64,000 nucleotides of DNA from the NCBI GenBank assembly GCA_963822445.1, contig CAWGHO010000003.1:192001-256000 (forward strand), in the 5' to 3' direction. A program made the position numbers and the translations under genes. This document shows positions 34,887 through 52,260 of the stretch, piece by piece. Every line of letters starts with the position of its first letter. Position 1 is the stretch's first letter. This DNA is from an uncultured Acidobacteriota bacterium. GTDB lineage: Bacteria > Acidobacteriota > Thermoanaerobaculia > Gp7-AA8. The notes below the pieces were generated by a model. The model made no database searches, was not told where the DNA came from, and worked only from the letters and a program-made list of their open reading frames with translations.

Positions 34887-35708
34887 TCAGCGAATGTGTT
34901 CGAGAATTTCGATCCGCTGCCTGATTTCGCTGGTCCATGCGGATCGGGGAGCGGAAGCAAGCGCGCGACGGTAGGCCTCGCCCGCCGAATGGCGTTGCCG
35001 AAGATGCTCGAGAGCAACGCCGCGGTTGAAGGCAGCAGATGAAAGATCGGGGGCGAGGGCAAGCGCGCGGTCCGCGGCGGCGACGGCCTGTTGATAGGCA
35101 TACGGATCGCCAGACGCAGCGCCGGCAGCCACGTACGCCACAGCCAGGTCGTTCCAGTAAGCGGCACGTTCGGGGGAGGAGCGCGCGGCGTGGACGAAGT
35201 TGGCGATCGCTTTCGGGGTGTCGCCGAGGAGTAGAAAGGCCACTCCGCGGGCGTGCACGGTAGCTGGATGGTCACCGCGCAACCGACTGGTCTCCTCGGC
35301 CGCTGCGCGGAGCTCGAGCTCCGGCCCCGAAGCCTTTTGCGAGCGGATTGAATTGAACGGCTTCCACGCGAAGCCGTGGAGATTTCCTTCCACGTGCCGA
35401 TTATCGGCCACCACGGCCGCGTCTCGGACTTGCGCCAGAGGATCCGAGGTCCCTGCACGCCAGAGAACGAGCGAGATTGCGATGGCTGTCAGCGCGGCGG
35501 CGACGGCTGATCGGCGCCACCCCCACGCCGGCCTCTGCTTTTCGCTCTCGCCGAGGAACCTGATCGTCTCGCCGATTACGATTGCGCATTCCGAGCAATT
35601 GGCCGCATGCCGTACGACGTCGGAATGGTGTTCCGCATCGAGGAAACCCTCCGCGAACTCGGCCAGGAGTGCCGGATCGGGGCAGCCGCGCACCGGTCTT
35701 TCGGTCAC
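34887..35708 (-). CDS. zf-HC2 anti-sigma factor with TM helix and TPR domain
   Basis: CPD..LAEFAEG.L..HAANCSEC (HxxxCxxC), a TM helix, TPR-like WNDLAVAY..AAFNRG. Overlaps the sigma gene stop. Confidence 0.85.
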   Translation of the reverse strand: MTERPVRGCPDPALLAEFAEGFLDAEHHSDVVRHAANCSECAIVIGETIRFLGESEKQRPAWGWRRSAVAAALTAIAISLVLWRAGTSDPLAQVRDAAVVADNRHVEGNLHGFAWKPFNSIRSQKASGPELELRAAAEETSRLRGDHPATVHARGVAFLLLGDTPKAIANFVHAARSSPERAAYWNDLAVAYVAAGAASGDPYAYQQAVAAADRALALAPDLSSAAFNRGVALEHLRQRHSAGEAYRRALASAPRSAWTSEIRQRIEILEHIR

Positions 35709-36583
35709 TCTCGTTCCTCTCTCTCTGCCTGGTTCTTGTCCGTGGACAGAAATCCGAAGTCCAGATCACGGTGCCGGCTCGCCAGGACGCTGGCCGCGTC
35801 CGCCGCCGTGATGCCCGCTGCTTCGAGACGAGCGCGAAGCAGGACCAGCATCCGCTGCAGCTGCCGGTAGAGAGGCTTCTGTTCGATTCGCAGCGTTCGC
35901 GAGATGTCCGCCACGCTCATTCCTCCTTCGAAGCGTAGACGGAAGATGAGTCGATCCATGTCACGGAGGTCGCGCATCGTCGCACGAACGATGTCCTCGA
36001 TCCGGCTGGACACGTCACGCCAATATGAAGCGAATACCACTTCGTCGACACGATCATCGGCGGCGATTGCGTCGCGGGCATAGTCGATGTCGACCGGTCT
36101 GGGACGCGCCGTCCGGGTGGGAAGCTTCGTGGAGATTGTTTCTACACGCTGCCGTGTGAGATCAGGCCAGCGGCGGGTGAGAGACGGAAGAATTTCGTCG
36201 ATCGTTCGCCCATCACGGAACAGCAGAGCCTCGATGGTGATCGCCGGTTCTCCAAGGCGCCGAGCCGTTGCCGACGCATGCCACTTTCCCCACTGAGAGA
36301 TCCGATAATCGAGCAGCAACCGCTGCACGACGATGGAGATGAACGCCGCGAACGTCGATCGCCGCTGATATTTGCGGATGATGGCATAGCTGTCGTCGAT
36401 GAGTCTCAGTTTCACGTACGACGCGAAATCGTCAGCGTCGTGGGGTTGCATTCGGCCGCGACGGCACGCAAAGCGGATGGCGCGATCGATCGTCGAGAGC
36501 TCCCGGACAAACAGTGATTCCGGCTGTGTGCCGTCGGCGTCCGAGCACGCGTTGCCACCGTCGTTGTCCCGTTGCGACCCCAC
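35705..36583 (-). CDS. ECF-type sigma-70 factor with insertion between regions 2 and 4
   Basis: Region 2-like DADDFASYVKLRL..STFAAFISIVV.RLLLDY and region 4 DRLIFRLRFEGGMSVADISRTL..LYRQL. Confidence 0.85.
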   Translation of the reverse strand: MGSQRDNDGGNACSDADGTQPESLFVRELSTIDRAIRFACRRGRMQPHDADDFASYVKLRLIDDSYAIIRKYQRRSTFAAFISIVVQRLLLDYRISQWGKWHASATARRLGEPAITIEALLFRDGRTIDEILPSLTRRWPDLTRQRVETISTKLPTRTARPRPVDIDYARDAIAADDRVDEVVFASYWRDVSSRIEDIVRATMRDLRDMDRLIFRLRFEGGMSVADISRTLRIEQKPLYRQLQRMLVLLRARLEAAGITAADAASVLASRHRDLDFGFLSTDKNQAEREERE

Positions 36584-36709
36584 TCATCAAAGGAGTGCCG
36601 TTGCGCCAGCGATCCACACCCCAACGTGGCTGGATGCCAGCACGATATCCACAGCAACGTCCGGCAGTGCTTTCCGCTTTGCTGCATAATCGCCGAGGAG
36701 GAAATCCAT

Positions 36710-36964
36710 ATGGCGTTGAAAGTGAACGCGGCCCAGCTCAGTCTCGAAGGTCTCCTGAAACTTCTCGGTGGATCCGCCAGCGATCGTCTGCGGTTCTGGG
36801 AAATCCTCAAGGGGATCACCACGCCCGCCGAAGCGCAGCTGATCAATCAGAACCTCAACACCATCAACGTCCTCGCGAAACAGACCGCGGCGAACCTCAA
36901 AGGTCTTCAGACCACCGCCGGCCAGATCAACAAGAGAATTGCCAAAGGGAAGAACGTCCGCTGA
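36710..36964 (+). CDS. 84-aa small protein, candidate YcaO substrate/precursor peptide
   Basis: Strong RBS GAGGAGG before ATG 36710. Ends 7 nt before the inferred YcaO start. Sequence MALKVNAAQLSLEGLLKLLGG...KGKNVR. Confidence 0.75.
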   Translation: MALKVNAAQLSLEGLLKLLGGSASDRLRFWEILKGITTPAEAQLINQNLNTINVLAKQTAANLKGLQTTAGQINKRIAKGKNVR

Positions 36965-36971
36965 CAGAGCG

Positions 36972-38678
36972 GTGGAAATCGATCTGAAGAAGGCGTTCGG
37001 CGCATCCCGCCGGACGCCTTCTGATTTTGCGGCCGCATTTTTCGAGGCCGGCGACGACCGCCGGCGCTGTGCGTTCGAGTCGCAAACGCATCGAGACGGC
37101 GTCTCCTCGCTGATCGCTTCAGCGGATGCCGATCGGGCGCTGATCGGGCCGCTCTCGCTCCCCGGAAGAGCGGGCTGCGCGCACTGCGCCCACGAGCGGA
37201 TCCGGGCGGCGGCGGCAGTCCATGACCCGCGCCGCCCGGCCACGCAACGCGCTCGTGCGGTGGCGCGGCGCGTGATGGAGCGCGAGGCTCAGGCGATCGC
37301 GGATGGCGGCACGGCGCTGCTCGATCACGTGCTCGCGGTCGATGTGCGCACGGGCGCGGAGTCGCTGCATCGCGTCATTCCGCTTTCGCGATGCCCGGTG
37401 TGCGGCGGCGCCGCGGATGCTCCCCTGATTGCTTCAGCGGCCGAGTCGCTCGACGGCTGGGTCGATCCGGTGACGGGCGTCATCAGCGCGATTCACCTCG
37501 ATCCCGAGACCGAACTGCCGTTCATCGTCACCGCGGCGCCTCCGCATGTCGTGCGGAACGATGGGACGCTGCAGCAATTGCCGATCGGATGGGGCAAGGG
37601 CCTCACCCTTCCCGACGCGGTGCTGTCGGCGGTGGGGGAGACGATCGAGCGGTACTCGGCGTCGTTCCCCGATGAATCACGCATTGTCTGGCGCCGGCCG
37701 CGCGATCTCGAAGGCGACGTTCTCGATCCGCGCGACTTTCCGCTTTACGCCGAACGGCATTACCGGCGGAAGAGCTTCCCGTATGCGCGGTTCAACGCGG
37801 CGATCCGGCATCCCTGGGTGCAGGGCACGTGGCTCGCCGGCGGCGGCGAGGTCTGGGTGCCGGCGGTGTTCGCGTTCCTCTCGCTGAAACTGCACGCGGA
37901 ACAGTTGTTCGTGCGGGAGACCTCGAACGGCCTCGCATCGTGGACGGAGCGCGACCCGGCCGCGTTGCGCGCGGTTCTCGAGCTGGTCGAGCGCGACGCG
38001 TTTCTCTCCGCGTGGATGACGGCAACGCCGGGACGCGCGGTCACGCTCGATGACGCGCTCGACCCTCGTCTCCGGCGCGTTTTCGATGCTGTCGAAACCC
38101 TTGGCGCAGCGATCGAGATCTTCACACTTCCCACGAGTGCGTGCGGGACGACGGTGCTGTGCGTCGCTCGCGGAGATGGTGAGCGCTATCCCGGCGCGAC
38201 CATCGCGCTCGCCGCCGATCTCGATCCGGCCGCGGCGCTGCAGGGCGCGATCCTCGAGCTCGGCCAGACCGCGCCTCACCTCCGGCGGATGATGCAAACG
38301 GGGGCAATCGCCATCCCCGCACGCGACACCGGCGTGCACGGGATGCTCGATCACGCCGCGTACTACTTTTCCGCCGATCGCGCGGCGGCGTTCGATTTCC
38401 TGCGCGGCGGCGGATCGATTTCCGTCCGCGCGCTGACAAGCCGCACCCGCCGGCGAACGCTCGCCGCCTGCACCGCCGCGCTCCGAAAAGCGAATGTGCG
38501 TGTCGCGCTCGTCGATGTCACCGCACCCGACGTCGCCACCGGACCGTTCCGGGTGATTCGCGCCGTGAGCCCTGACCTTCAGCCACTCTCGTACGGCTAC
38601 GGATTCGAGCGCCTTCCGGTCGAACGTGTTCGCCGGCGCGGCGTCGCGACAGGCGTACCCGTGCATCCAGTCTGGTAG
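36972..38678 (+). CDS. YcaO-family cyclodehydratase with truncated E1-like/TOMM N-terminal domain
   Basis: IGPL..PGRAGCAHC and HRVIPLSRCPVCG. YcaO ATP motifs GWGKG..SAVGETIERY and TSNGLAS..ELVERDAF. Pro-rich C-terminus PVHPVW. GTG start inferred. Confidence 0.88.
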   Translation: MEIDLKKAFGASRRTPSDFAAAFFEAGDDRRRCAFESQTHRDGVSSLIASADADRALIGPLSLPGRAGCAHCAHERIRAAAAVHDPRRPATQRARAVARRVMEREAQAIADGGTALLDHVLAVDVRTGAESLHRVIPLSRCPVCGGAADAPLIASAAESLDGWVDPVTGVISAIHLDPETELPFIVTAAPPHVVRNDGTLQQLPIGWGKGLTLPDAVLSAVGETIERYSASFPDESRIVWRRPRDLEGDVLDPRDFPLYAERHYRRKSFPYARFNAAIRHPWVQGTWLAGGGEVWVPAVFAFLSLKLHAEQLFVRETSNGLASWTERDPAALRAVLELVERDAFLSAWMTATPGRAVTLDDALDPRLRRVFDAVETLGAAIEIFTLPTSACGTTVLCVARGDGERYPGATIALAADLDPAAALQGAILELGQTAPHLRRMMQTGAIAIPARDTGVHGMLDHAAYYFSADRAAAFDFLRGGGSISVRALTSRTRRRTLAACTAALRKANVRVALVDVTAPDVATGPFRVIRAVSPDLQPLSYGYGFERLPVERVRRRGVATGVPVHPVW

Positions 38679-38703
38679 TGTCAGGCGCGCACGGGAGGGA
38701 ACC

Positions 38704-39342
38704 ATGATCATCGGCATCCCGATCTTTCAGAAAGTCGACCTGCTCGACGTCGCCGCGGCGGTCGAGGTGTTCACTTCCATGAAATCGTACGCGCCGCAGC
38801 TCGGCGCGGAGATCTGGCTGATCGCCGAAGATGACTGCGACGTGGTCACGCGCGTGGGAGTGACCCTCAAGCCGCAGAAGTGCTTCGAGGAAGTGCCCGT
38901 GGTCGATGTGCTGTGGGTTCCGGGCGGCGATCCGTCGGCGCTGAATGCACTGATGCACGATCCGAAGCGGACGTACCTCGACTTCCTGATCACCCGCAGC
39001 GCCGGTGCACGATACGTGACCTCGGTTTGTGAAGGCGCGTTGCTGCTGGCGCAGGCCGGACTGCTCGACGGCTACCTCGCCACGACGCACTGGGCATTCG
39101 TTCCCTGCCTGAAACGCTTCAAGTCAGTCAAAGTGGCGGAAGGCTATCCGCGCTTCGTCGTCGACCGGAATCGCGTGACCGGCGGCGGGATTTCATCGGG
39201 CCTCGACGAATCGCTGAAGATCGTCGAGCTGCTCGCCGGCTACGAAGTCGCGCAGCAGGTGCAGCAGTTCACGCAGTACTACCCGGCCCCGCCCGTGGCC
39301 AGCATCATCCCCGACGCCACCGGCTGCCCGCTCGATGGGTAG
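38704..39342 (+). CDS. DJ-1/PfpI family protein (isonitrile hydratase-like)
   Basis: LLDV..EVF, DVLWVPGG, TSVCEGALLL (nucleophile Cys), ATTHW, GGGISSGLD, QYYPAPP. Confidence 0.88.
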   Translation: MIIGIPIFQKVDLLDVAAAVEVFTSMKSYAPQLGAEIWLIAEDDCDVVTRVGVTLKPQKCFEEVPVVDVLWVPGGDPSALNALMHDPKRTYLDFLITRSAGARYVTSVCEGALLLAQAGLLDGYLATTHWAFVPCLKRFKSVKVAEGYPRFVVDRNRVTGGGISSGLDESLKIVELLAGYEVAQQVQQFTQYYPAPPVASIIPDATGCPLDG

Positions 39343-39385
39343 GGAAAACTCTTCCAGCTGACTCTCCTGAAATATCAACTCCCAT

Positions 39386-39799
39386 AAAAAAATCGATCAC
39401 GCTGTTCTCCGGCGGACGCCGTCGACGCGAGCAGAGACGCTTCTTCTCGTCTGGGCGGCGGTAGCCGCGCTGCTCCCCAAGTGTCCTCTCTGTTTCCTGG
39501 CGCTCCTCGGCGCGACGGGAGCGCTGGGGACGGCTGGCTCGGCCTGGGCTGCGTGGATGCCGGCCGTCATGGTCGGCTCGCTTCTGATCTCGGTCACCGC
39601 GGTCTCCATTCGAGCGCACATGGAGCGCCGGTACGGGCCCGCGATCGTCGCCCTGATCGCCGCGGTCACGATCGTCTTGGGCAGATTCGTCTTTCACTCG
39701 ACCGCCGTCGTTTACGTCGGCGCGGCGACGCTTTTCGGCGCCGCGATCTTTCATTTCGCAATGGAGAGGATCCGATGGCACAAACCGCTGGTGTCGTGA
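39386..39799 (+). CDS. MerC-like CxxC membrane protein; start codon missing or non-canonical
   Basis: The frame of ORF 39557..39799 is open from 39371 and encodes LLLVWAAVAALLPKCPLCFLALLG plus further TM helices. No ATG/GTG/TTG occurs before the motif. Confidence 0.6.
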   Translation, partial: KKIDHAVLRRTPSTRAETLLLVWAAVAALLPKCPLCFLALLGATGALGTAGSAWAAWMPAVMVGSLLISVTAVSIRAHMERRYGPAIVALIAAVTIVLGRFVFHSTAVVYVGAATLFGAAIFHFAMERIRWHKPLVS

Positions 39800-41853
39800 C
39801 CCGGTATGAACGTGTGGTCGAGATTCTCGACCGCGCTGCGGCGAACAGCGACGCCGATTACGGCGGCGCCGGACGCTTCTGGTTTCCGCTCGCCAATCTG
39901 TTGCAGGCGCGCGTCCACGGCGTCCGGATGATCGCCCCCGAAGAGCCGGCGGAGCAGGCCTGCCCTTGCTGCGTGCCGGCGTCCGGCGATGGCCCGCCCT
40001 TCCCCGAGCGGGGCGCGAAGTCCGGCCTGGTGCGTGGGCTTCGCGGTCAGGCTCCGTTCGACGGAACACAGTTTCCCCGTCTGCCGTGGGGCGGCAGCCC
40101 TGTCGCGCCGGACGACATCGAGCTGATCTCGTCCTGGATCGACGATGGTTGTCCCGATCCGCAGCACGAGATCTCGCTCCAGGCGGTCGCGCAAACGTCG
40201 GCGACGAGCGTCGAGGCCATCCCGGAGGGCAACACCGAGAGCGAAACGCGGACGTGGCCTGTTTATGAAGGCTCCCCGAACGAGTACCGCTATCCCTACG
40301 GCGAGGTGAAGCAGCGGATGAACCTCGACTGCCTCCTGCCCGATCAACTGGCCCAGCTCCGTCGAGCCTTCCGGGAGATGTACCGGCTGAACAAGTGGCC
40401 CGAGGACCGGCGCAGTTACAACAACATGGCGTTGATTCACAAGAATCACTGCCAGCACGGGTGGGAGCGCTTCCTGCCGTGGCACCGCATCTACCTGTAC
40501 GAGTTCGAGCAGGTGATGCAGGACGTCTGCCCCGGCGTCACCATGCCTTACTGGGACTGGACTCTGACGCAGTATGTCCCCGAGCATCCGGAGACGGGCG
40601 CGATCATCCCGGAGTCGTTCAAGGGATTCATCACCGACGACTCGCTCGACTACCTGACGCACGCCACGCCGAAGCTGGGGGCGGCGGAAGCGAAGACGCT
40701 GTCGGAACAGGTGGTCGGCACACTGTACAGCTCCGTCACCAAATTTTTCGACGCGGTCGAGGCGGCGATCGGCAAGCCGTACACGCAGGGTGATCACCGC
40801 GATCGTTTCATCGACGCGCTCCTCGCGGCGAATTCGCTCTGGTATCCGCTGCGCTATTCGGCCGAGTTCCCGAAAGGAATCACCGGCGATCCCTTCCACT
40901 ATCACTACCCGACCGCCGAGGACATGCAGCAGATCATGGCGCTGCGCACCTTCCGCGACTTCGGCGGCGGAAGCCTCTACAACGACTCGTTCGGCTATCT
41001 CGACCAGAACCCGCACAACACGATGCACATCTGGACGGGCGGACTGAACCCGAATCCCGAGCCCGATCCCGAGTTCGGCGTGGCGCTGGGGCGCAACCGC
41101 AACCGCGCCACCAAAGCCGCCGCGCGCGTCTTCCACTCGCGTGAAGACATGTACACCCAGCCCGGCAGCGGCGACATGCTGAGCAATCTCACCGCCTCGT
41201 ACGACCCGATCTTCTGGCCCATCCACGCCAACATCGACCGCCTCTGGTCGGAATGGCAGCAGTGCAACCCGCACGCGAACCCCGCCGATCTCGACGCCGT
41301 GCTCACGCCGTGGAGCTACACCACTGCGGACACGCTCGACATGGCGCGCTTCGGCTACGAGTACGTCAAGTGCGCCTTCGTGGTGCCGGTTGGTCTCTCC
41401 GCGCCGGTGGGGCGCTTCGTCTCCCAGCCGATCGCCATTCCGAAGCCGGCGCGCAAGTCGTTCCGGCAGGTGGAGGTGCGGCTGCATCGGGTTCCGCAGC
41501 TTCCGCGCTCCTGCTTCATCCGCGTCTTCCTGAATCTGCCGGACGCAAACGCCTCCACGCCCATCGACCACGAGAACTACGCCGGTTACCTCGGCATCTT
41601 CGGCCACGGCGCATGCATCGGCGGCCCCGGGCACTGCGAGCTGCCGCCGTCGCGGGCGCGCGAGTACGACCTCCGCCCGCGCAGCCACAACACGCCGCGC
41701 AATCACCGCGTGAACGTCACCAGGACCGCCAAACGCCTGCTCGAAGGCGGTGCCGAATCGCTGCAGATCACGCTGTTGGTCATCGGCGCCGACTATCGCG
41801 AAGACAACGAGCTCCTGCGCGTCGACGGCGTCTCACTGGACTTCCTCGACTAG
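39775..41853 (+). CDS. Tyrosinase (type-3 copper protein) with extra N- and C-terminal domains
   Basis: CuA IHKNHCQHGWERFLPWHR, PYWDW, CuB PHNTMH..DPIFWPIHANIDRLW. C-terminal FIRVFLNLPDAN..ENYAG resembles the polyphenol-oxidase shielding domain. Confidence 0.92.
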   Translation: MAQTAGVVTRYERVVEILDRAAANSDADYGGAGRFWFPLANLLQARVHGVRMIAPEEPAEQACPCCVPASGDGPPFPERGAKSGLVRGLRGQAPFDGTQFPRLPWGGSPVAPDDIELISSWIDDGCPDPQHEISLQAVAQTSATSVEAIPEGNTESETRTWPVYEGSPNEYRYPYGEVKQRMNLDCLLPDQLAQLRRAFREMYRLNKWPEDRRSYNNMALIHKNHCQHGWERFLPWHRIYLYEFEQVMQDVCPGVTMPYWDWTLTQYVPEHPETGAIIPESFKGFITDDSLDYLTHATPKLGAAEAKTLSEQVVGTLYSSVTKFFDAVEAAIGKPYTQGDHRDRFIDALLAANSLWYPLRYSAEFPKGITGDPFHYHYPTAEDMQQIMALRTFRDFGGGSLYNDSFGYLDQNPHNTMHIWTGGLNPNPEPDPEFGVALGRNRNRATKAAARVFHSREDMYTQPGSGDMLSNLTASYDPIFWPIHANIDRLWSEWQQCNPHANPADLDAVLTPWSYTTADTLDMARFGYEYVKCAFVVPVGLSAPVGRFVSQPIAIPKPARKSFRQVEVRLHRVPQLPRSCFIRVFLNLPDANASTPIDHENYAGYLGIFGHGACIGGPGHCELPPSRAREYDLRPRSHNTPRNHRVNVTRTAKRLLEGGAESLQITLLVIGADYREDNELLRVDGVSLDFLD

Positions 41854-41863
41854 AAAGGCAGCG

Positions 41864-44458
41864 ATGAGAATTCCTATCTACCGCATCCATCCCGGCATCG
41901 GGGTCGCCCGCCTGGGCAACAGTCCCGACTCGTTTTACATCGGTCCGCAGCAGCGGGCCGAGCTGCCGATCGAGTGCGACGCGCTCGGCAATCCGATGCT
42001 CTCTCCGGACGGCATGACCGTGCAGCGCGTGGCCACGTTCAAGGATGCCGAGGGGCGCATCCGGCGGCAGGCGGCGCGATTCGAAGTGTGGGTGTACGAC
42101 GATGAATCGCCCGACGGACGCCCACTCCGCCGCGGAGATCCCATCGAAGGCGGCGGGAACGCCGGCGCGCTCGTCGACATCCAGTGGCGGGTCTGGCTGG
42201 CGAACAAGAAAGCGAGCTGGTACCAGTTCGATCAGCTCGAAGGGGAGCATGGATACGCGGACAACCATCCGCTGCGGAACTCCGACATCACCGACCCTGA
42301 CGCGCGGCAGCGGCTGATCATCGATCCCGGACCGCGCACGGTCGATGGATCGACGCGGCGGCGGGCCAGCTTCGACCGGGACGGCGGCGAGAACTATTCG
42401 CCGACCTTTCCGCCGCCGCTCGAGCCGTGGGCCATCGACACGCTCGGCGATCTGCTCACCGACAACGAGGGACGGCTCCTCGTCCTCGGCGGCCACGGTC
42501 ACTCCGGCTCCTATCTCTTCGACGAGTTCGGCCAGCCGCGCATCGTCGACTACGCGAACAACGACGGCTGGTTCGACGACACCTCCGACGGCCCGGTCAT
42601 GGCGCGGCTGGTCATGTTCTCCGACCTCGTCGGCGAGGTCCGCTTCATCGACGTCGAGGCGCCATCCTGGGTCATCTGCGCCTACCCGCGCTACGTTCCG
42701 GAGGTGCTCGACGTCGTGACCATGGACGACGTGATCGACGACCTCGCCATCACCGAGTTCGCGGAGCGGACCGACATCTACGGCACGGCGGGAACGTTCG
42801 GCGATCCGCCGTACATCGCGCCGACGGACACCGACGCGCTGATTCACTGGCGTGCCGGCCGGCTGCGCTGGAACCCCGACTACAAACCGTGGTTCTACCG
42901 CGACGTCTGGTCGATCCTCTTCCGCCCCGACCAGTTCACCTACCTCTGCAACATCCTCGGGCAATCGAATTTCCCGCACAACTACTCCACGCGCGGCACG
43001 TTCGATCCGGCGAAACTCTCGGTGCCGCCGCAGATCTTCTGGGCCGGCGTGCGGAAATGCGAGGCGCGCTGCATGCGCCGCCACCACGACGGCGAGCTGT
43101 TCGTCGAGACGCTCGCGCCGCTGTACCTCGTACTGCAGAAACAGATCGGCCGCGAGCTGAAGGAAAGCGGCAGGTCCCTTCCTCCCGACGGCGTCCTCAC
43201 CACGGAAATGTCCGACGCGATGCAGGAAGCGCTGAAGACATTCGGCGACGCGGTCATCGGCGCGCCGAAGGACGGCGACGACTTCGATGGCTATCTCGCG
43301 CGCTGGCGCAGCTCCTCCCAGGATCCGGAAGCGGCCGCGGCGCGCGGGGCGCTGGAGGAGCGGTTCGCGGAGATCGTCGACGGCTTCAGCGCTGGACTGA
43401 GCGACCAGCTGAAGAGCGACCTTCGGCGCCTCACCGCCGAACATCTCCGCAAGCACACCATCGGCAAGCTCCTCGACGACTGCCGGGCCACGTGCATCGC
43501 CGCGAACACCTACGATCCGTATCGCCCCGATCGGCTCTTCCTTTTCAGCTTGTTGAGGCAGCCGGGGGAGGAGAACGATTTCTTCCTTTCCGGCAAGCCG
43601 AGCTCCCGCGTGCACAACCTGCCGCTCATGCCGCTGCTGGCCGGCGACAACCCGATCTCCAACACCCTGCCGTCGAAATTTCTGCGGCTGACCGAGTACC
43701 AGTACTACGTGCTGCGGCAGTGGGCGAACGGGATCTTCTTCAACGAAGAGCTCGAAGGCTGGCCGTATCCGAATCCGTGGTGGCCGTACGACGAGACCGC
43801 CGTCCAGACCGGACGCGATCTCGACCGCGGCGCGCTGGCCAGCGTCCTCGGCGGCTCGTTCTGTCCCGGCGCGGAGGTGGGATGGGTCATGCGCAATCCC
43901 GCGATCTGGCGCGAGCCGTATCGCATCAAAGCCGATCCCGGCTACTACGAGTTCGGCCAGACCGCGGCGCAGGCGAACGCGAACCACGGCCGCATTCCGG
44001 AAATCGACTACTCCTCGTACTCGACGAACGACCTCAGTCAGAAGAGCAACTTCGACGTCGGCCTGCAGCCCGGCGACCTCACCAAGTCGATGTCCGTGCC
44101 GTGGCAGAGCGACTTCAACGAGTGCACCACGCAGCCTATCGACATCACGTACGAAGAGTGGAACACCATCAATCCCGATGAGCCGGCCGACGCGCTGATG
44201 GCGCGCGAGCAGAAGGTCTGGGAGACGCTCTGGTGGCCGGCCCACCGGCCGACGCAGACGAGCGAAGCCACGTCAGCCGGCAACATCACCTGGCTCGATT
44301 GGACGCCGGGTGTTCCGCAGACGAACGCCGGCGATCTGAAGATGGTGACCGAGTGGTGGCGGCTGCCGTTCGTCACCCGCAACGCGGCCTACGACTTCAC
44401 GTTGCCGCCGCCCCAGAACCCGCCGCCGTACGTCAGCAAGGAGCGCACGAAGCGCTGA
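41864..44458 (+). CDS. LodA/GoxA-family CTQ-dependent amino acid oxidase
   Basis: YRIHPGIGVARLGNS, RQAARF, ANKKASWY, LGDLLTD..GRLLVLGG.G, NNDGWFDDTSDGPV, GGSFCPG.E, PGDLTKSMSVPWQSDFNEC (Asp/Cys), WWPAHRP (Trp). Confidence 0.93.
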   Translation: MRIPIYRIHPGIGVARLGNSPDSFYIGPQQRAELPIECDALGNPMLSPDGMTVQRVATFKDAEGRIRRQAARFEVWVYDDESPDGRPLRRGDPIEGGGNAGALVDIQWRVWLANKKASWYQFDQLEGEHGYADNHPLRNSDITDPDARQRLIIDPGPRTVDGSTRRRASFDRDGGENYSPTFPPPLEPWAIDTLGDLLTDNEGRLLVLGGHGHSGSYLFDEFGQPRIVDYANNDGWFDDTSDGPVMARLVMFSDLVGEVRFIDVEAPSWVICAYPRYVPEVLDVVTMDDVIDDLAITEFAERTDIYGTAGTFGDPPYIAPTDTDALIHWRAGRLRWNPDYKPWFYRDVWSILFRPDQFTYLCNILGQSNFPHNYSTRGTFDPAKLSVPPQIFWAGVRKCEARCMRRHHDGELFVETLAPLYLVLQKQIGRELKESGRSLPPDGVLTTEMSDAMQEALKTFGDAVIGAPKDGDDFDGYLARWRSSSQDPEAAAARGALEERFAEIVDGFSAGLSDQLKSDLRRLTAEHLRKHTIGKLLDDCRATCIAANTYDPYRPDRLFLFSLLRQPGEENDFFLSGKPSSRVHNLPLMPLLAGDNPISNTLPSKFLRLTEYQYYVLRQWANGIFFNEELEGWPYPNPWWPYDETAVQTGRDLDRGALASVLGGSFCPGAEVGWVMRNPAIWREPYRIKADPGYYEFGQTAAQANANHGRIPEIDYSSYSTNDLSQKSNFDVGLQPGDLTKSMSVPWQSDFNECTTQPIDITYEEWNTINPDEPADALMAREQKVWETLWWPAHRPTQTSEATSAGNITWLDWTPGVPQTNAGDLKMVTEWWRLPFVTRNAAYDFTLPPPQNPPPYVSKERTKR

Positions 44459-44471
44459 AGAAGGAGACGCA

Positions 44472-44900
44472 ATGAAGCACGACAATCCGTTCGTCGGGAC
44501 GTGGAGCTACCGCAGTCTGAACAATGACCCTGATCTCTCCATCGCGTTCAACGACCTGCAATTCGGGATCGGCACGATCAAGATCACGGCCGACTCCTTC
44601 GACAGGCTCGGAGGAACGATCGGCGGGCAGGGGTGGTCGCTCAACCTGCGCGGCTCGTTCGGCTACGGTTCGCCGATGCAGATCCGCTTTCAAGGCAAAG
44701 GCGTGGTCGGTCCGGCGGAATGGATCTACGACTACATCGGCTGGCTGGTGCCGGTCTGGCCGAACAGCAACGACCAGCTGGAGCGGTCTTCGATCGTCGG
44801 CTCCATCGTGCGAACCGTCCCGCATCAGAGCGAAACGGGCACCGGTCCGATTCACCCGGCCGGCGTGGTCGCGTCCTGGTACGCCGTGCGCGCAAAGTGA
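44472..44900 (+). CDS. Small beta-barrel-like hypothetical protein
   Basis: RBS AAGGAG. GTWSYRS..WIYDYIGW..IVGSIVRTVPH..AGVVASW. Lies between the lodA-like and lodB-like genes. Confidence 0.75.
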   Translation: MKHDNPFVGTWSYRSLNNDPDLSIAFNDLQFGIGTIKITADSFDRLGGTIGGQGWSLNLRGSFGYGSPMQIRFQGKGVVGPAEWIYDYIGWLVPVWPNSNDQLERSSIVGSIVRTVPHQSETGTGPIHPAGVVASWYAVRAK

Positions 44901-45997
44901 TGCGTGTCGATGTCGCAATCGTCGGCGCCGGCCCGGCCGGAAGTGCGTGCGCGATCTCGCTGCGCGCGCACGCGCCTTCGCTTTCGGTCGCACTGATCGA
45001 AGCCTCGCCCTTCGACGCGGCGCGACCCGGTGAGACGCTTTCGCCCGCGGCGCGCCCGCTCCTCGAGCACCTCGGCGTCTTCGCCGCGTTTCGCGTCGCG
45101 GGACACGCGGAAGTACATGGAACGACCGCGTCGTGGGGCAACGATTCAGCGGAGGACAACGACTACATCTTCAACGCGCGTGGACCGGGCTGGCATCTGG
45201 ACCGAGCTCGCTTCGACGCCATGCTCGCCGAGCACGCCGCCTCGCGCGGCGCGGCACTGCTCGTCGGCGCAAAAGTGCGCGACGCCGACGGCGCCTGGCG
45301 TCTGCATCTCGCCGATGGACGAATCGTCGAAGCAGGTTTCGTCGTCGATGCGACCGGCAGCGCGGAACTGGCCAGGCGATTCCGTGCGGCGCGAGCCACG
45401 GCGTTCGATCATCTGGTCAGCTTCGGGAAATTCTTCGATGACCACTCGGACGGCGATCCGCGCACGGTCGTCCAGGCATTCGCGGATGGCTGGTGGTACA
45501 CCGCGGCGCTTCCGCGGCAGCGCCGCTTCGTCGCCTGCATGACCGACAGCGCCGTCGCCCGCCGCCTGCGTCTCAGCGACACGGCCACCTGGAGCCGGAT
45601 GCTCGAAGAGATGCCGCTGGTCGCCCGCGTCGCGCGCGGGGCGAATGCCTGCGGCCCGCTGGTCGCGCGTCCCTGCGGCTCGCGGCGGCTCGACCCGGCC
45701 GCGGGCGCCGATTGGATCGCCGCCGGCGATGCCGCGTCGCGGTACGATCCGCTTTCTTCCCAGGGAATCACCAAGGCGCTGCGCTCCGGCATCTTCGCGT
45801 CGTACGCGATCGGCGACCGACTGACCGGCGGCGACTCACGAGGACTCCGCCGCTATCATCGTTTCATCCGGTCCGAGTTCGACCACTACCTGCGCACCCG
45901 GGCGCAGGTCTATCGCGAGGAGCGGCGTTGGCCGGAGAGCGAGTTCTGGCTGAAGTTCGGAAACGACAACCCCATCCAAGACGAGCAGCAGGATTAG
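44900..45997 (+). CDS. LodB/GoxB-like FAD-dependent oxidoreductase (CTQ maturase)
   Basis: VAIVGAGPAG, GETLSP, GWHLDRARFD, VVDATG, GWWY, AGDAA..DPLSSQGI. Start overlaps the upstream stop. Confidence 0.88.
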   Translation: MRVDVAIVGAGPAGSACAISLRAHAPSLSVALIEASPFDAARPGETLSPAARPLLEHLGVFAAFRVAGHAEVHGTTASWGNDSAEDNDYIFNARGPGWHLDRARFDAMLAEHAASRGAALLVGAKVRDADGAWRLHLADGRIVEAGFVVDATGSAELARRFRAARATAFDHLVSFGKFFDDHSDGDPRTVVQAFADGWWYTAALPRQRRFVACMTDSAVARRLRLSDTATWSRMLEEMPLVARVARGANACGPLVARPCGSRRLDPAAGADWIAAGDAASRYDPLSSQGITKALRSGIFASYAIGDRLTGGDSRGLRRYHRFIRSEFDHYLRTRAQVYREERRWPESEFWLKFGNDNPIQDEQQD

Positions 45998-46012
45998 AGA
46001 GGAGAGAACGTC

Positions 46013-46393
46013 ATGCCCGACTGGTCGATCAAGATCGTTCAATGCAGCACCGGCGAAGGCGCCGAATTCGTCCCTGACCTCAAAGGAAAGGTCGCCGGCG
46101 ACCCGCTGGAGTGCATGGTGGACGACCTGGTGACGTGGAACAACTGCACCACCGAGGAGCACCAGCCGTGGCCGGCCGACGACACGTACACGGCGCTTCC
46201 CAACGATCAGGTGCTCCCGCGGGGAGGCCCGAACTACCTGTCCGACATCATTCCCGCCGGAGGATCCTCGCAACCCAGTTACGACGTCGCCCAACCGTCC
46301 GCCGCGCCCGCGCAGTGGACCGTCCATTACATCTGCGTGCTCCATCCCTACGTGGAAACCGAGCGCGGAACCATCATCGGAAACGCGTACTGA
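46013..46393 (+). CDS. Small cupredoxin-like protein
   Basis: D.VTW.N....HQ and C-terminal YICVLHP..GTI resemble the plastocyanin His...Cys-x2-His pattern. No axial Met. RBS GAGGAG. Confidence 0.6.
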   Translation: MPDWSIKIVQCSTGEGAEFVPDLKGKVAGDPLECMVDDLVTWNNCTTEEHQPWPADDTYTALPNDQVLPRGGPNYLSDIIPAGGSSQPSYDVAQPSAAPAQWTVHYICVLHPYVETERGTIIGNAY

Positions 46394-46404
46394 GGAGCCA
46401 TGAC

Positions 46405-48915
46405 ATGCGCATCAATCGAATGAACCTGTTTCTGCTCACCCTTCTGTTGATCGCGGCCGTCCCGGCCACGGCGCAGTGGATTCCATGTCTGGGAGACTCC
46501 ACGACCGGCGGCGCCTGGACCGCGCCCGACCTTCCGACGATTCCCGAGCTCATTTCCAGCGGCGGCAAGCTGCGGGCCACGCTCATGCTCGTCGACGAGC
46601 AGCAGCGCATGACGTTCAAGACCCCTCCCGGCGCGGCGCCGTCGGACACGAACGTGATCAAGTGCGCGCCGCAGTACGTGCGCGCGTTCAAAGGCTTCGG
46701 CGCCACGCCTCCGCTGCCGAAACCGACCAGCGACTATCCCGATCCGATGCCCGGTCCGACCCTTCGGGCCCGCCTCGGCGACATGGTCGAGCTCACCTTC
46801 CTCAACCAGGTCAACCCTGCCAACTTCGGCAACTCCATCGACCGCGGCGACTCGAAGACCGGCACCGGCTGCGATGAGAGCAGCAACGGCTATCCGAACA
46901 AGGCCGGCGGCGGGAAGGACACGTATCCGGACTGCTTCCACGGCTCGAGCACCGCGAACATCCACTTCCACGGCACCCATACCAATCCCAACTCCACCGG
47001 TGACAACGTCTTCATCGAGATCCGCCCATCGCCTCGCAGCGGCGGGAAGCCCACCGTCACCAGGGAGACGTTCGCGAGCGCCTTCAGCGATTTCTTTCAG
47101 CGCTGCGAAGCGCAGCTCGGCCCCAACGTCCTCAGCCTCTGGCCGCACAAATGGGAAGACCTGCCCGACGCGTATACCGAGAAACAGAAGTCGCTGCTTC
47201 AGGCGTATGACATGACGCCGGACATCAAGAAGCTCTGGCCGGTGAATGCGGAGCAGATCGCGCGCGGCGACTGGCCGCAGTACTACATCGGCGCCTATCC
47301 CTACTGCTGGCAGATCCCGAAGTACACGGCGACGGTCTTCCCGCCGCCCCCTTCGACGACCGAGCACACCGGCCACACCGGCGGACCGCTCGACCCGCCG
47401 CCGCAAAAGCCGCTGCAGATGGGACAGGCGCCTGGTCTGCACTGGTATCACGCGCACAAGCATGGCTCGACGGCCATCAACGTCGGCAACGGGATGACCG
47501 GTGCGTTCGTGATCGAAGGGCAGTACGACGACGATCTCGACGCTTTCTACGGAACGGGCTGGACGCGCCGTCAGCCGGTGCTGGTGGTGAACCAGCTCGG
47601 CGTCACGCCCAATCTCATGCGCGGAGGAAGCGGCAGAACCGACAAGGGTCCCAACTTCTCCGTCAACGGCCGCATGCGCCCGGTGATGAAGATGCAGCCC
47701 GGCGAAGTGAAGCTGTGGCGGATCGTGAATACCTCCGGCCGCGCCGGAACGTTCGTGGTGGGGATGTACAACGCCGCCGGCCAGCCCGCCGTCGACGCGA
47801 GCAATAAGCCGCTGTTCACCTGGTATCAGATCGCCCAGGACGGCGTGCAGTTCAGCCCTGCCAACTTCGGGAGTCCCGGGTTCACGAACAACAAGTTCCT
47901 GCTCGCCGCCGGCAACCGCGCCGACCTTCTGGTTCAGGCGCCGCTGACGAAGGGCGTCTACAGCCTTCGCGTACAGAACGAGGTCGATCCGCAGGACCTC
48001 GCCACGCAGAACCTGGTCACGCTGTTCTCGGTGAACGTCACCGGCGCTCAGGCCACCGGCAATCTCGCCAAGCTGACCACCACCGCGCCGTCATTCCCCC
48101 CGTTCCTGACCGACATCAAACCGGAAGAGGTGAAGGGGACGAAGGAAGTGACGTTCTCCACCGGACCGACCTTCGGCGAGCATCGGATCAACCACAAGAA
48201 GTTCGACGGCGAGGTAGGGGAGCTCGTCCTCCTCAACACGGTTGAAGAGTGGAAGGTCGTGAACGAGACCTATGGCCCGCCGATCTCGCATCCGTTTCAC
48301 ATCCACATCAATCCGTTCCAGATCACGGAGATCTTCGATCCGAATGCGGTCCTGAGCACGGCGGACGGCGGCGGAACGTTGAGCACGACGAACAACAGCG
48401 CCGTCGTGACCGGCTCCGGTGCGACGAACTTCACGACCGTGCTGCGCCCCGGCTGGGTCCTCAACATCGCCGGTCAGGGTCTCGTCACGGTGCTCAGCAT
48501 CCAAGACGACACCCATCTCACGCTCACCGGCGTCGCCGGCACGACAGCCACGGGGCTGACGTACACGGTCAACACGCCGCAGTACGTGTTCCTCAACACG
48601 CCCGCACCGCTGGCAGGGCAGTGCTATCTCGATCCCGGGGACAAAACGACCTGGAAGCCTTGCGCATCCGTGCCGCAGCCGCCGGCCAAGGACAACATCT
48701 GGTGGGATGTCTTCCCGATTCCGTCAGGCGTCAGCGTGACGTGGGCCGGCGCGGCCAAGCCGCCGAACGTGCCCGGGTACTTCAGGATGCGCAGCCGCTT
48801 CGTCGACTACTCCGGCTACTACGTCATTCACTGCCACATCCTCGCGCACGAGGACCGCGGCATGATGACCGTCGTCGAAGTGGCGCCGGCGGCGTCGCCC
48901 TATTCGCACCATTGA
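46405..48915 (+). CDS. Secreted multicopper oxidase (paralog of the gene at the window start)
   Basis: Signal peptide. HFHG, HWYHAHKHG, HPFHIH, HCHILAHEDRGMM. RBS GAGGAG. Confidence 0.92.
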   Translation: MRINRMNLFLLTLLLIAAVPATAQWIPCLGDSTTGGAWTAPDLPTIPELISSGGKLRATLMLVDEQQRMTFKTPPGAAPSDTNVIKCAPQYVRAFKGFGATPPLPKPTSDYPDPMPGPTLRARLGDMVELTFLNQVNPANFGNSIDRGDSKTGTGCDESSNGYPNKAGGGKDTYPDCFHGSSTANIHFHGTHTNPNSTGDNVFIEIRPSPRSGGKPTVTRETFASAFSDFFQRCEAQLGPNVLSLWPHKWEDLPDAYTEKQKSLLQAYDMTPDIKKLWPVNAEQIARGDWPQYYIGAYPYCWQIPKYTATVFPPPPSTTEHTGHTGGPLDPPPQKPLQMGQAPGLHWYHAHKHGSTAINVGNGMTGAFVIEGQYDDDLDAFYGTGWTRRQPVLVVNQLGVTPNLMRGGSGRTDKGPNFSVNGRMRPVMKMQPGEVKLWRIVNTSGRAGTFVVGMYNAAGQPAVDASNKPLFTWYQIAQDGVQFSPANFGSPGFTNNKFLLAAGNRADLLVQAPLTKGVYSLRVQNEVDPQDLATQNLVTLFSVNVTGAQATGNLAKLTTTAPSFPPFLTDIKPEEVKGTKEVTFSTGPTFGEHRINHKKFDGEVGELVLLNTVEEWKVVNETYGPPISHPFHIHINPFQITEIFDPNAVLSTADGGGTLSTTNNSAVVTGSGATNFTTVLRPGWVLNIAGQGLVTVLSIQDDTHLTLTGVAGTTATGLTYTVNTPQYVFLNTPAPLAGQCYLDPGDKTTWKPCASVPQPPAKDNIWWDVFPIPSGVSVTWAGAAKPPNVPGYFRMRSRFVDYSGYYVIHCHILAHEDRGMMTVVEVAPAASPYSHH

Positions 48916-48929
48916 GATTTGGGTTCAAG

Positions 48930-48959
48930 GAGGTCGTCGCGGGAACCCGCGACGGCCTC
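48930..48959. terminator. GC-rich hairpin between convergent genes
   Basis: Stem GAGGTCGTCGCGG/CCGCGACGGCCTC (one G-U pair) with loop GAAC. Confidence 0.6.
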
Positions 48960-48969
48960 ACTCGGCGGC

Positions 48970-49675
48970 TCACACTGGCTCGTGCCGCACGAGGACTGGC
49001 AAAGGACGCCGGCGGCGAACCCTCCATAACCAATAGAACATCGCACCGAACAGCACCAGGATCGGCAGCGCGCGCATCGGGCCGGTGGTGAACAGCTCGG
49101 GAAGGATTCTCGCGACCCGCTCGCGGATCGAGAAGAACGATCCCGCCGCGATGAACAGTGCGAAGCACATCCGCCACAGATGGCGCGCCAGGCGCGGTCC
49201 GCCTCGGGGCATGCCCGATCGCATGACCCGCACGTCGCCGGCCGCTGCCAGAAGAAGGACGGTGGCGAGGATGAAGGACATCACGCCGATCGTGCGAAAG
49301 GGAACTCCGCCCGACGAAAGGCCAGGGTTGTTGATGGCCTTGGCGCCGCCGGCGATTGAGGCGAGCGCGAGTCCGACTGCGACGGTCAGCGCGGCAATGT
49401 TGATCGCGCGCGTCCATCGCGACGGCGGGCGGACCGTCGTCAGCGCGGTGCCGACAAAATACATCGACAGGACCGCGGCAGCCACATTCGCCATGTCGGC
49501 TCGATGGAGAAACTCCAGGATCGACGCGGTCGTGCCCATCATCAGCATCGCGTAGACGAACAGCATCCCGCTGCGGCGGTGGATCGTTCCACCTTTCTTG
49601 ACGAACAGAGCGGCGAAGCCGAGACACAATCGCGAGCCCGCCGGCGACAACGTGAATGGGTAGAAGGGTCTGCAT
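48970..49675 (-). pseudogene. DUF2306-like membrane protein with a +1 frameshift near 49625
   Basis: MQTLLPIHVVAGGLAIV is in one frame and LGFAALFVKKGGTIHRRSG..RLARHLWRMC in another. Removing one T joins them. Confidence 0.7.
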
Positions 49676-49699
49676 GGTGACCAGCCTGCCGAGGCTCTG

Positions 49700-49739
49700 C
49701 TGAACTGAACCTGAACCGGGCCGTTCAGCGGTCGTTCAG
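49700..49739. promoter_or_regulatory. Bidirectional OmpR-family operator: CTGAAC x3 then GTTCAG x2
   Basis: CTGAAC at 49700, 49705 and 49711; GTTCAG at 49723 and 49734. Two pairs with 11-bp spacing in opposite orientation between divergent genes. Confidence 0.65.
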
Positions 49740-49763
49740 GAGCGACGCCCTAGCCTGCACGGC

Positions 49764-50171
49764 ATGACCAAACACAATCCACTCCTCACTGTGACCTCTC
49801 TTCTGGCCATCCTCTTCCTCTCGATTCACGTGACCGACGACATCATTCGCGGATACGAAAAATGGGGTTTCGAAAAACTCAGTTTCCTGCTGATCCTGGT
49901 CGTCTGGCTGTACGGAACGCTGGTGTTGTCCGAGCGGCGAGCAGGTCGCGTCATCATGATCCTCGGGGGACTGCTGGCGGCGCTCATACCCGCTGTCCAC
50001 ATGAGGGGCACGGGCTCTTTCGTCAAGTCCAGCGGGGCCTTCTTCTTCATCTGGACGCTCTTCGCGCTCGGCGCCACCGGAGCCCTTACCGTGATCCTCG
50101 CCGCGCGCGGACTGCGGAGGGGGAAGATAATGACCGCGGTCGAGCATGAGAGTCCTGATCGTCGAGGATGA
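49764..50171 (+). CDS. Small 4-TM membrane protein
   Basis: Four hydrophobic segments, conserved-looking HVTDDI and VHM.G. First gene of the two-component operon. Confidence 0.7.
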   Translation: MTKHNPLLTVTSLLAILFLSIHVTDDIIRGYEKWGFEKLSFLLILVVWLYGTLVLSERRAGRVIMILGGLLAALIPAVHMRGTGSFVKSSGAFFFIWTLFALGATGALTVILAARGLRRGKIMTAVEHESPDRRG

Positions 50172-50808
50172 GTCACTGCTGGCCAGCCGGCTGGCCGCCA
50201 CACTCGGAGAACGCGGGTATGCCGTCGACGTTGCGGCGGACGGAGAGCGCGGCGACTTTCTCCTCGGCACCGAGACCTACGACGCGGTCATCCTCGACCT
50301 CGGGTTGCCGCGGATCGACGGGCTCACGCTGCTCGAACGCTGGCGCGCCGCCGGAATCGCGGTGCCGATCCTGGTTCTCACCGCCCGCGGAAGCTGGTCG
50401 GAAAAAGTCCGCGGCATCGACGGGGGCGCGGACGACTACCTGACCAAGCCCTTTCAGGTCGAGGAGCTGCTGGCGCGGCTCCGCGCTCTGATCCGGCGGT
50501 CGAGCGGACAGCTCACGCCCGAATTGCGGTGCGGCGCCGTGGTGCTCGATCCGAGGACGTCGCAGGTCACTCTCGATGGACAGCCGGTGAAGCTGACCAG
50601 TCATGAGCTGCGCGTGCTCTCGTATCTCATGCACCACCGCGGCCGCGTCGTTTCGCAGGGCGAGCTGACCGAGCACATCTACGCGCAGACGTTCGACCGC
50701 GACTCGAACACCGTCGAGGTCTTTATCGCGCGTCTTCGACGGAAGCTCGGCGCGTCAGCGATCGAGACCGTACGCGGACTCGGATATCGCATGCGGGCGG
50801 AATCGTGA
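50146..50808 (+). CDS. OmpR/PhoP-family response regulator
   Basis: LIVEDE, LDLGLP, GADDYLTKPF, DSNTVEVFIARLRRKLG, ETVRGLGY. Confidence 0.93.
   Translation: MRVLIVEDESLLASRLAATLGERGYAVDVAADGERGDFLLGTETYDAVILDLGLPRIDGLTLLERWRAAGIAVPILVLTARGSWSEKVRGIDGGADDYLTKPFQVEELLARLRALIRRSSGQLTPELRCGAVVLDPRTSQVTLDGQPVKLTSHELRVLSYLMHHRGRVVSQGELTEHIYAQTFDRDSNTVEVFIARLRRKLGASAIETVRGLGYRMRAES

Positions 50809-51849: not shown

Positions 51850-52260
<411 letters not shown>

Follow-up and report, generated by a model that had tools for sequence, protein, structure and literature searches.

Gene content of the locus

The DNA stretch analyzed here (the window; 64,000 nt, G+C content ~0.65) derives from an uncultured Acidobacteriota bacterium (Gp7-AA8; GenBank assembly GCA_963822445.1, contig CAWGHO010000003.1, 192,001-256,000 of the forward strand), and all coordinates given below are positions within it. 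It holds an array of ten genes on the plus strand (36710-48915) with spacers of 7-31 nt or small overlaps, as described in an original prediction made from the DNA letters. The products are an 84-aa protein (the peptide), a YcaO enzyme, a DJ-1/PfpI protein, a small CxxC membrane protein, a tyrosinase, a LodA-like oxidase of the cysteine tryptophylquinone (CTQ) type, a β-barrel protein, a LodB-like flavoprotein, a cupredoxin-fold protein, and a multicopper oxidase (MCO; Table 1). The original prediction had assigned all ten genes to one oxidative pathway. The results presented below indicate that the array very probably consists of two independent units lying side by side, a peptide-YcaO cassette (36621-38693) and an oxidase operon of eight genes (38704-48915).

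Family assignments were obtained by Pfam and NCBIfam searches of the window proteins; folds were taken from AlphaFold2 models built from homologue alignments and evaluated by Foldseek and structure-comparison Z scores. The searches bore out the predicted YcaO, DJ-1/PfpI, tyrosinase, LodA-like, LodB-like, and MCO families. Four small products (the peptide, the CxxC membrane protein, and the 142-aa and 126-aa proteins) matched no Pfam or NCBIfam family; the latter two had been called a β-barrel and a cupredoxin, in agreement with their predicted folds (predicted local distance difference test scores of 95.4 and 93.5, respectively). From the tyrosinase (39775) through the MCO (48915), all genes lie on a common strand with spacers of ≤15 nt. 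The hairpin announced past the MCO stop (48930) is real and likely marks the operon end (Table 1), and it was absent from the output of the terminator scan. The promoter/terminator scan gave no promoter-like sites and five terminator-like sites versus 7.7 expected, none of them at a gene boundary. An Rfam search of 35000-50000 returned no match. The divergent open reading frame (ORF) ahead of the array was found as described, while its identity as a sigma factor gene reached only a sub-threshold score of the extracytoplasmic function (ECF) type (Table 1).

Table 1. Features of the array and its borders (positions within the 64-kb window).
Feature	Position	Strand	Evidence or remark
ECF-type sigma-like gene, divergent	35705..36583	-	longest ORF 292 aa; TIGR02937 38.2 bits vs cut-off 42.9; Sigma70_r4_2 E 0.0049
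Peptide-YcaO cassette, 2,073 bp	36621..38693		stretch missing from one related soil contig
84-aa small protein	36710..36964	+	homologue directly 5' of YcaO in 67/80 loci
Fused E1-like/YcaO enzyme, 568 aa	36972..38678	+	PF02624, TIGR03604, TIGR03882
DJ-1/PfpI protein, 212 aa, first gene of oxidase operon	38704..39342	+	PF01965 E 1.3e-13
Small membrane protein, KCPLC motif	39374..39799	+	orthologues 5' of tyrosinase in G036, G510, G458, G494, G486
Tyrosinase, 692 aa	39775..41853	+	PF00264 E 6.6e-35, residues 214-497
LodA/GoxA-family CTQ quinoprotein oxidase, 864 aa	41864..44458	+	LodA_N, LodA_C
Avidin-like 8-stranded β-barrel, 142 aa	44472..44900	+	predicted fold and fold searches
LodB/GoxB-like flavoprotein, presumed CTQ maturase, 366 aa	44897..45997	+	NF038171, NF038174
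Cupredoxin-fold protein, 126 aa	46013..46393	+	predicted fold and fold search
MCO, 836 aa	46405..48915	+	Cu-oxidase_2, Cu-oxidase_3
Strong stem-loop past MCO stop	48920..48972	+	dG -32.7 kcal/mol, z -4.95; without T-run

Separate recurrence of the two units

The units are regarded as separate because the oxidase block recurs without the peptide-YcaO pair and the pair recurs without the oxidase genes. For the oxidase block, 18 barrel loci from 17 of 124 genomes of the family were searched with all window proteins. All eight genes in the window order were present in two genomes (G458 and G494, 65-92% identity), and seven of the eight, without DJ-1, in a third (G486). Smaller sets comprised membrane protein, tyrosinase, LodA, barrel, and LodB (G036, G510); tyrosinase, LodA, barrel, and LodB (G459, G448, G507); cupredoxin, MCO, tyrosinase, LodA, and barrel with a convergent LodB gene (G029, G489b, with DJ-1 before the barrel in G489b only); cupredoxin, MCO, and barrel (G026, G018, G488); DJ-1 and barrel (G489a); and the barrel alone within the stretch examined (G498, G490, G492). 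In total, tyrosinase, LodA, and LodB occurred together in 11 of the 18 loci, cupredoxin with MCO in nine, DJ-1 in five, and peptide with YcaO in one, namely the window; neither peptide nor YcaO was found in the other 17.

The 3.9-4.2 kb 5' of DJ-1 in G458 and G494 are unrelated, with Ig-like repeats in one genome and a glycosyltransferase in the other; thus, the conserved unit begins at DJ-1. Judged by synteny, the module boundary is at 38679-38703, between YcaO and DJ-1. It is not at the A/T-rich gap at 39343-39395, where the original prediction had considered a break, because the DJ-1 and membrane protein genes adjoin in both genomes.

The YcaO sequence was used for a metagenome scan, which yielded 80 loci at 40-63% identity (48 with at least 1 kb and 21 with at least 3 kb of downstream sequence). 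A peptide homologue was located immediately 5' of YcaO in 67 of these, and matches to DJ-1, membrane protein, tyrosinase, LodA, barrel, cupredoxin, or MCO in none. A LodB-like flavoprotein (25-27% identity) 5-6 kb 3' of YcaO in five of the 80 loci sits beyond gyrB and was judged unrelated. In two genomes, the pair is likewise not accompanied by the oxidases: G495, with VWD and TIR proteins nearby, and G404, with a pyridoxal phosphate enzyme and a flavoprotein nearby. A lack of co-occurrence of the pair with the oxidase genes had been named beforehand as what would refute the single pathway, and such co-occurrence was observed neither in the 80 metagenome loci nor at the loci of G495 and G404. 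Of that pathway, the grouping of the DJ-1 to MCO genes therefore stands, as these recur as a block; the membership of peptide and YcaO (0/80 and 0/17 loci) does not.

The strongest single evidence for a separate cassette is a 1,697-nt contig from soil run X1. It matches 35520-36620, containing the sigma-like gene, and then 38694-39212 within DJ-1 (~90-95% alike), with 78 other letters where the window has the 2,073 bases of the peptide-YcaO stretch, so that the sigma-like gene lies directly beside DJ-1. No convincing direct or inverted repeats were seen at the cassette borders.

Components of the oxidase operon

Cys109 of the DJ-1/PfpI protein lies within the motif TSVCEGA of the matched domain, at what we take to be the catalytic nucleophile-elbow position; orthologues with 75-81% identity occupy the same position in G458 and G494. 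For the adjoining gene, the predicted ORF and its CxxC motif were retrieved, whereas a canonical start ahead of the CxxC helix was not. The frame is open from 39374 without ATG, GTG, or TTG ahead of the first helix, and an ATG is not reached until 39557; in orthologues, the KCPLC motif is preceded, at a distance of ~21 codons, by an ATG or GTG start. Translation could begin at a rare codon (for example, ATC 39392) or only at Met62, which would leave out the CxxC helix; decay of the gene is a third possibility. The tyrosinase contains His clusters, an N-terminal extension of ~210 aa with a CPCC motif, and a C-terminal domain.

The LodA-like protein matched LodA_N (PF17990, E 4.5e-58) and LodA_C (PF18417, E 3.5e-41). 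Its scores to the equivalog models for LodA (308.6 versus 600 bits) and GoxA (167.4 versus 750 bits) were below both cut-offs and, thus, it is an orthologue of neither. In an alignment with 3WEU, Cys755 and Asp751 (numbered from the translation of 41861-44458; Cys754 if counted from the ATG) aligned with Cys516 and Asp512, which we take to be the LodA residue numbers; the solved structures are 2YMW and 3WEU for LodA and 6BYW for GoxA. Both residues are invariant among 13 paralogues, and Trp792, followed by Pro793, is the only invariant Trp after Cys755. The LodB-like gene starts 439 nt 3' of the LodA-like gene, with the barrel gene between them, and its product scored 260.8 bits to NF038171 (E 1.9e-77) and 237.8 bits to NF038174, both below the cut-off of 400. 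The genome of the window contains two more LodA-like/LodB-like pairs (G000:C1:948019-949794 and G000:C3:589456-590892) without barrel, tyrosinase, or MCO, and at least three further MCO paralogues.

The fold of the 126-aa protein gave 70 Protein Data Bank matches at E ≤1e-3, including purple cupredoxin, plastocyanin, and MCO domains. Conservation among 32 sequences is ≥90% at His50, Cys108, and His111, and no axial Met was identified. The N-terminus MPDWSIKI is invariant and without a signal peptide. The gene lies 5' of an MCO gene in eight other loci. The MCO itself has a hydrophobic, signal-like N-terminus and four His-rich copper motifs, including that of the HCHxxxHxxxxM type (HFHGTH, WYHAHKHG, HPFHIH, and HCHILAHEDRGM); its NCBIfam matches to CueO (47.5 bits versus a cut-off of 525) and CopA were weak.

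Barrel protein and its fusions

The 142-aa protein is predicted to form an 8-stranded up-and-down barrel, similar to avidins, to designed barrels, and to the barrel at the N-terminus of PvdP (Z scores from 13.5 to 9.5; Foldseek E ~1e-2). The barrel family comprised 423 representatives at E ≤1e-3; the profile was found in 17 of the 124 family genomes and in two of 401 genomes sampled from the phylum, and homologues on rhizobial plasmids amounted to 110 records. In a genome from another family of the phylum (G115, locus L181, G115:C4:339349-343700), barrel, tyrosinase, and MCO genes lie in a row, as in the rhizobial cluster type.

Seven long barrel homologues were scanned for domains. Two were barrel-MCO-AhpC/TSA-tyrosinase fusions of ~1,700 aa, two barrel-MCO-AhpC/TSA fusions, one a barrel-DUF4440-RidA (L-PSP)-MCO-AhpC/TSA fusion, one a barrel-AhpC/TSA fusion, and one a partial barrel-DUF4440-MCO fusion; the giant fusions (P0139, P0146, P0123, P0129, and P0136) had 900-1,750 aa. 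These domain fusions point to barrel, MCO, and tyrosinase acting in one process and also link them to peroxide- and reactive-imine-removing enzymes.

The peptide-YcaO cassette

The YcaO enzyme matched PF02624 (E 2.2e-58) and TIGR03604 (219.5 bits, barely over the cut-off of 219.25), and its N-terminus matched TIGR03882, the leader peptide-binding domain of thiazole/oxazole-modified microcin (TOMM) enzymes (53.8 bits versus a cut-off of 36.9). It probably starts at 36972, as set by the gene caller of the protein collection (568 aa), which leaves a 7-nt gap after the peptide gene in place of the overlap reported originally; the alternative start is a TTG at 36939, giving 579 aa. Across 20 homologues, four N-terminal Cys residues are invariant, as are S219, E223, E226, R227, E337, E340, and R341, which presumably form the ATP-site motifs. 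The closest solved structures are TruD, LynD, and MusD (E 1.1e-30 to 1.3e-23).

The 84-aa protein is conserved over its full length. L18, G35, and T37 are invariant, T37 being the sole invariant Thr; an LLGG motif occupies residues 18-21, and a G35-I-T37-T-P turn lies between predicted helices. Tyr is absent from it, and 36 of 54 sequences retain its single Trp (W30). Lacking Cys as well as a variable core, it does not qualify as a classical TOMM precursor. In line with the original prediction, the Pfam/NCBIfam scans detected neither a SagB-type dehydrogenase nor a protease or exporter within the ten-gene array, and the scanned flanks held none; none was present among the recurrent neighbours in the 80 metagenome loci either. 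Prediction of a complex of YcaO and peptide gave a score of 0.00, which is evidence neither way, and the ESM Atlas had no informative neighbour for the peptide. The G+C content at third codon positions was 0.75 for the peptide and 0.79 for YcaO; it was 0.83-0.89 for six of the eight operon genes and 0.81 for the LodB-like gene.

On a 1.5-Mb metagenome contig (L060, 9680-11662), the peptide reads in frame into YcaO as one ORF, either a genuine gene fusion or an artefact of sequencing. No second case emerged when the peptide was looked for within longer proteins, so this reading stays unsupported.

In a large protein collection, YcaO relatives formed 401 clusters at E ≤0.001. The best four had identities of 83, 81, 62, and 60%; many more were at ~50-55%, some of which are labelled Pyrinomonadaceae or Luteitalea by their sources. 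The pair thus appears, from these sequences, to be widespread in soil bacteria. A subset of soil metagenome contigs (including L053, L059, L060, L062, L051, L077, L061, L040, and L043) has the order dnaA, dnaN, peptide, YcaO, recF, gyrB at the replication-origin cluster: of the 46 loci with a flank of ≥1.5 kb, 18 had dnaN 5' of the pair, recF was 3' of it in 17 of 48, and yidC farther 5' in eight; the remaining loci have other neighbours. In the genome of the window, dnaN is on a different contig. Among genomes of the phylum, four of the 401 sampled had a YcaO match at E ≤1e-30. Within the family, five of 124 did at E ≤1e-40, with an orthologue only in G495 (62%); matches of 36% were found in G445 and G490, and a YcaO search of genome contigs gave a single distant match (23% identity). 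A match of 41% in G033, a species of the same genus, was rejected as an orthologue. It belongs to a canonical TOMM cluster (L033:1219-5039) with a Cys-rich precursor and a 796-aa fused cyclodehydratase; the ORF 3' of the latter was judged SagB-like by eye from its sequence alone. A literature search gave no paper on the dnaN-recF placement, and none of the titles and abstracts listed for YcaO describes the peptide-YcaO pair.

Relation to described systems

The oxidase block had been considered undescribed; it was published in 2015 as the LodA-like group ID operons. In the available part of that report, ten genomes, with Bradyrhizobium japonicum USDA6 as an example, carry a gene for 138-142 aa without a known domain, flanked by a lodA-like and a lodB-like gene, all operons also hold tyrosinase and MCO genes, and the authors leave the function open there (Campillo-Brocal et al. 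2015, PMC4417212). One acidobacterium is among the group ID members listed. A literature search for LodA-like or CTQ proteins together with tyrosinase (and MCO) found only this paper. The oxidase operon of the window is an extended member of this known, biochemically unsolved cluster type, because it has a 142-aa family-less gene between LodA and LodB and includes tyrosinase and MCO. It differs from group ID by the additional DJ-1, CxxC membrane protein, and cupredoxin genes and by having the MCO gene last and not first.

The annotated order on plasmid p_3 of Mesorhizobium huakuii is MCO, tyrosinase, LodA/GoxA (split in two), hypothetical protein, and FAD oxidoreductase. The products are 52-54% (LodA), 67% (barrel), 56% (tyrosinase), and 42% (LodB) identical to those of the window, whereas the MCO, in pieces, reaches no more than 26-36% identity. 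Barrel copies from Mesorhizobium and Rhizobium plasmids, located between LodA and the FAD enzyme, are 67-73% identical to the barrel of the window. A shorter order, MCO, hypothetical protein (56% identical to the barrel), and tyrosinase, occurs on Sinorhizobium medicae pSMED03 and Sinorhizobium meliloti pRmeGR4b. According to the available part of Contreras-Moreno et al. (2020, PMC7010606), the trio of pRmeGR4b in strain GR4 (mcoA, C770_GR4pB024, and mepA) accounts for copper-inducible melanin; single deletions of mepA or mcoA each reduce the pigment, whose formation ceases in the double mutant, and the latter is also more susceptible to predation by Myxococcus. Unlike the operon of the window, the GR4 melanin cluster lacks the LodA/LodB pair, DJ-1, and cupredoxin, and the Sinorhizobium tyrosinase (S. 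medicae copy) has no ~210-aa N-terminal extension.

Like Marinomonas mediterranea lodAB and goxAB, the window has an oxidase with LodA_N and LodA_C domains, a Cys that aligns with LodA Cys516 and an Asp four residues earlier, and a flavoprotein gene close 3'; unlike in these, a barrel gene is placed between oxidase and maturase genes. The tyrosinase PvdP matures pyoverdine, acts on peptide-bound tyrosine, and has a streptavidin-like N-terminal barrel. As in PvdP, an 8-stranded barrel is tied to a tyrosinase in the window (Z 9.5, rmsd 3.5 Å over 114 residues, Foldseek E 1e-2). However, the window barrel is a separate protein (fused to MCO in relatives), the likeness is at fold level only (16% identity), and avidins and designed barrels outscore PvdP (Z 11-13.5). 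The YcaO enzyme shares with TruD, LynD, and MusD the fusion of an E1-like part to the YcaO domain; it is ~200 residues shorter than TruD, whose N-terminal peptide-clamp part is unmatched. Unlike cyanobactin clusters, the cassette has no cyanobactin-type protease or oxidase, and the partner protein lacks Cys and a variable core.

Proposed functions and alternative explanations

From the gene families, predicted folds, conserved synteny, and domain fusions, we infer the following chemistry. In the oxidase operon, LodB would mature the CTQ cofactor of the LodA-like enzyme, which would turn an amine into a carbonyl with release of H2O2. The tyrosinase and the MCO, the latter presumably exported with its signal-like N-terminus, would convert phenols to quinones and radicals, and the products would polymerize to a melanin-type protective pigment. 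The barrel might bind a small molecule or the terminus of a peptide, a part in copper or electron handling might fall to the CxxC membrane protein and the cupredoxin, and DJ-1 might clear reactive by-products. By analogy with the Sinorhizobium trio, the chances for such a melanin-type function are about evenly balanced. In the cassette, the fused E1-like/YcaO enzyme would modify the 84-aa protein by ATP-dependent backbone activation. The likeliest reaction would be a cyclodehydration at Gly35-Ile-Thr37-Thr, mapped with low confidence to Ile36-Thr37.

For the operon, an alternative is that it serves mainly as an antimicrobial or biofilm-dispersing H2O2 generator of the LodA/marinocine type, with the copper oxidases as accessories. 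The LodA_N/LodA_C domains, the LodB-like partner, and the conserved, putative CTQ Cys fit this, and the known LodA and GoxA enzymes release H2O2 according to the available part of PMC4417212. We regard it as improbable: barrel and MCO occur without LodA in G026, G018, and G488, barrel, MCO, and tyrosinase do so in G115, the Sinorhizobium plasmids, and the fusion proteins, and the LodA-like protein is below both equivalog cut-offs. A role in copper homeostasis or resistance, with the MCO as a cuprous oxidase, cupredoxin and CxxC protein as copper handlers, and the tyrosinase as a sink for the metal, could account for the CueO and CopA matches, for the CxxC motif, and for the copper inducibility of S. 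meliloti melanin (PMC7010606, available part). The block holds no P-type ATPase, CopB/C/D, or CusCBA, what is conserved alongside is a quinoprotein with its maturase, and the CueO score is far from the cut-off, all of which make this role very improbable. Least credible is a single pathway of all ten genes, in which YcaO would activate the peptide and tyrosinase, LodA-like enzyme, and MCO would oxidize or cross-link it in a new class of ribosomally synthesized peptide with post-translational modifications (RiPP) or of cross-linking system. The absence of oxidase genes from the 80 YcaO loci and those of G495 and G404, of peptide and YcaO from the 17 other barrel loci, and of exactly the cassette from the X1 contig outweighs the co-orientation of the genes, the YcaO-DJ-1 gap without predicted terminator or promoter, and the resemblance of the barrel to that of a tyrosinase acting on peptide-bound tyrosine; moreover, the peptide offers no Tyr and no consistently conserved Trp.

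For the cassette, it is an even question whether the 84-aa peptide is the substrate of YcaO. It could also be a partner or regulator of a YcaO enzyme whose target is a different protein, like McrA in the case of the methanogen YcaO. Its full-length conservation without variable core, the lack of protease, exporter, or dehydrogenase beside the pair in the contexts seen, and the placement of a subset among the replication genes dnaA, dnaN, recF, and gyrB suit this role. It appears unlikely nevertheless, since the enzyme has a TOMM leader-binding-type N-terminal domain, its closest solved relatives are peptide heterocyclases, and the pair moves as a unit, with both genes in one frame in L060. Only tentatively, the pair may be seen as a new YcaO system, in which the target of a heterocyclase-like enzyme would be the invariant Gly-Ile-Thr-Thr-Pro turn of a conserved cytoplasmic protein of ~85 aa with three helices, and no RiPP would be exported. 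The fixed position of the pair between dnaN and recF in one lineage hints at a housekeeping role.

Taken as a whole, two units, namely an oxidase operon of known type and a peptide-YcaO cassette, are the probable explanation of the array. Several points weigh against it. The empty-site join of X1 comes from one contig of one metagenome, and the 83% and 81% identical YcaO relatives fall outside the contexts compared. Only 25 nt separate the YcaO stop from the DJ-1 start, with no terminator-like site between them, so that the two units may be co-transcribed here and a local functional link is possible. The melanin-type function rests on distant enzymes (tyrosinase 22% and MCO 27-36% identical, the latter in pieces, to those of Sinorhizobium), and a literature search found no LodA-containing version of the cluster that had been tested. 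Finally, the 84-aa protein has no Cys/Ser/Thr-rich core.

Neighbouring genes

On the 5' side, the sigma-like gene adjoins a gene (33161-35458, minus strand) whose 765-aa product includes a caspase (Peptidase_C14) domain. The operon is followed by an OmpR-type response regulator (50146-50808), weak homologues of which occur near the MCO loci of some relatives, and by the C-terminal part of a sigma-54 activator (51850-52281, minus strand). At the left end of the window lie an MCO paralogue cut by the window edge (2-2161), a weak match to di-haem cytochrome c peroxidase (2177-4714), and a GMC oxidoreductase (4726-6645).

Implications

With the separation into two units, the attractive idea of a new RiPP-oxidase pathway falls away as incorrect. 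The acidobacterial locus joins a cluster type noticed in 2015 and sharpens the question of why a CTQ oxidase and its maturase accompany tyrosinase, MCO, and barrel. What sharpens it is that the barrel is avidin-like by prediction and fused to MCO, peroxiredoxin, tyrosinase, and RidA in other proteins, that DJ-1, cupredoxin, and CxxC membrane protein are recurrent extra members, and that the trio connects to a cluster whose role in melanin formation was proven genetically. The peptide-YcaO pair is the less explored part of the array and represents a compact two-gene system open to bench testing.

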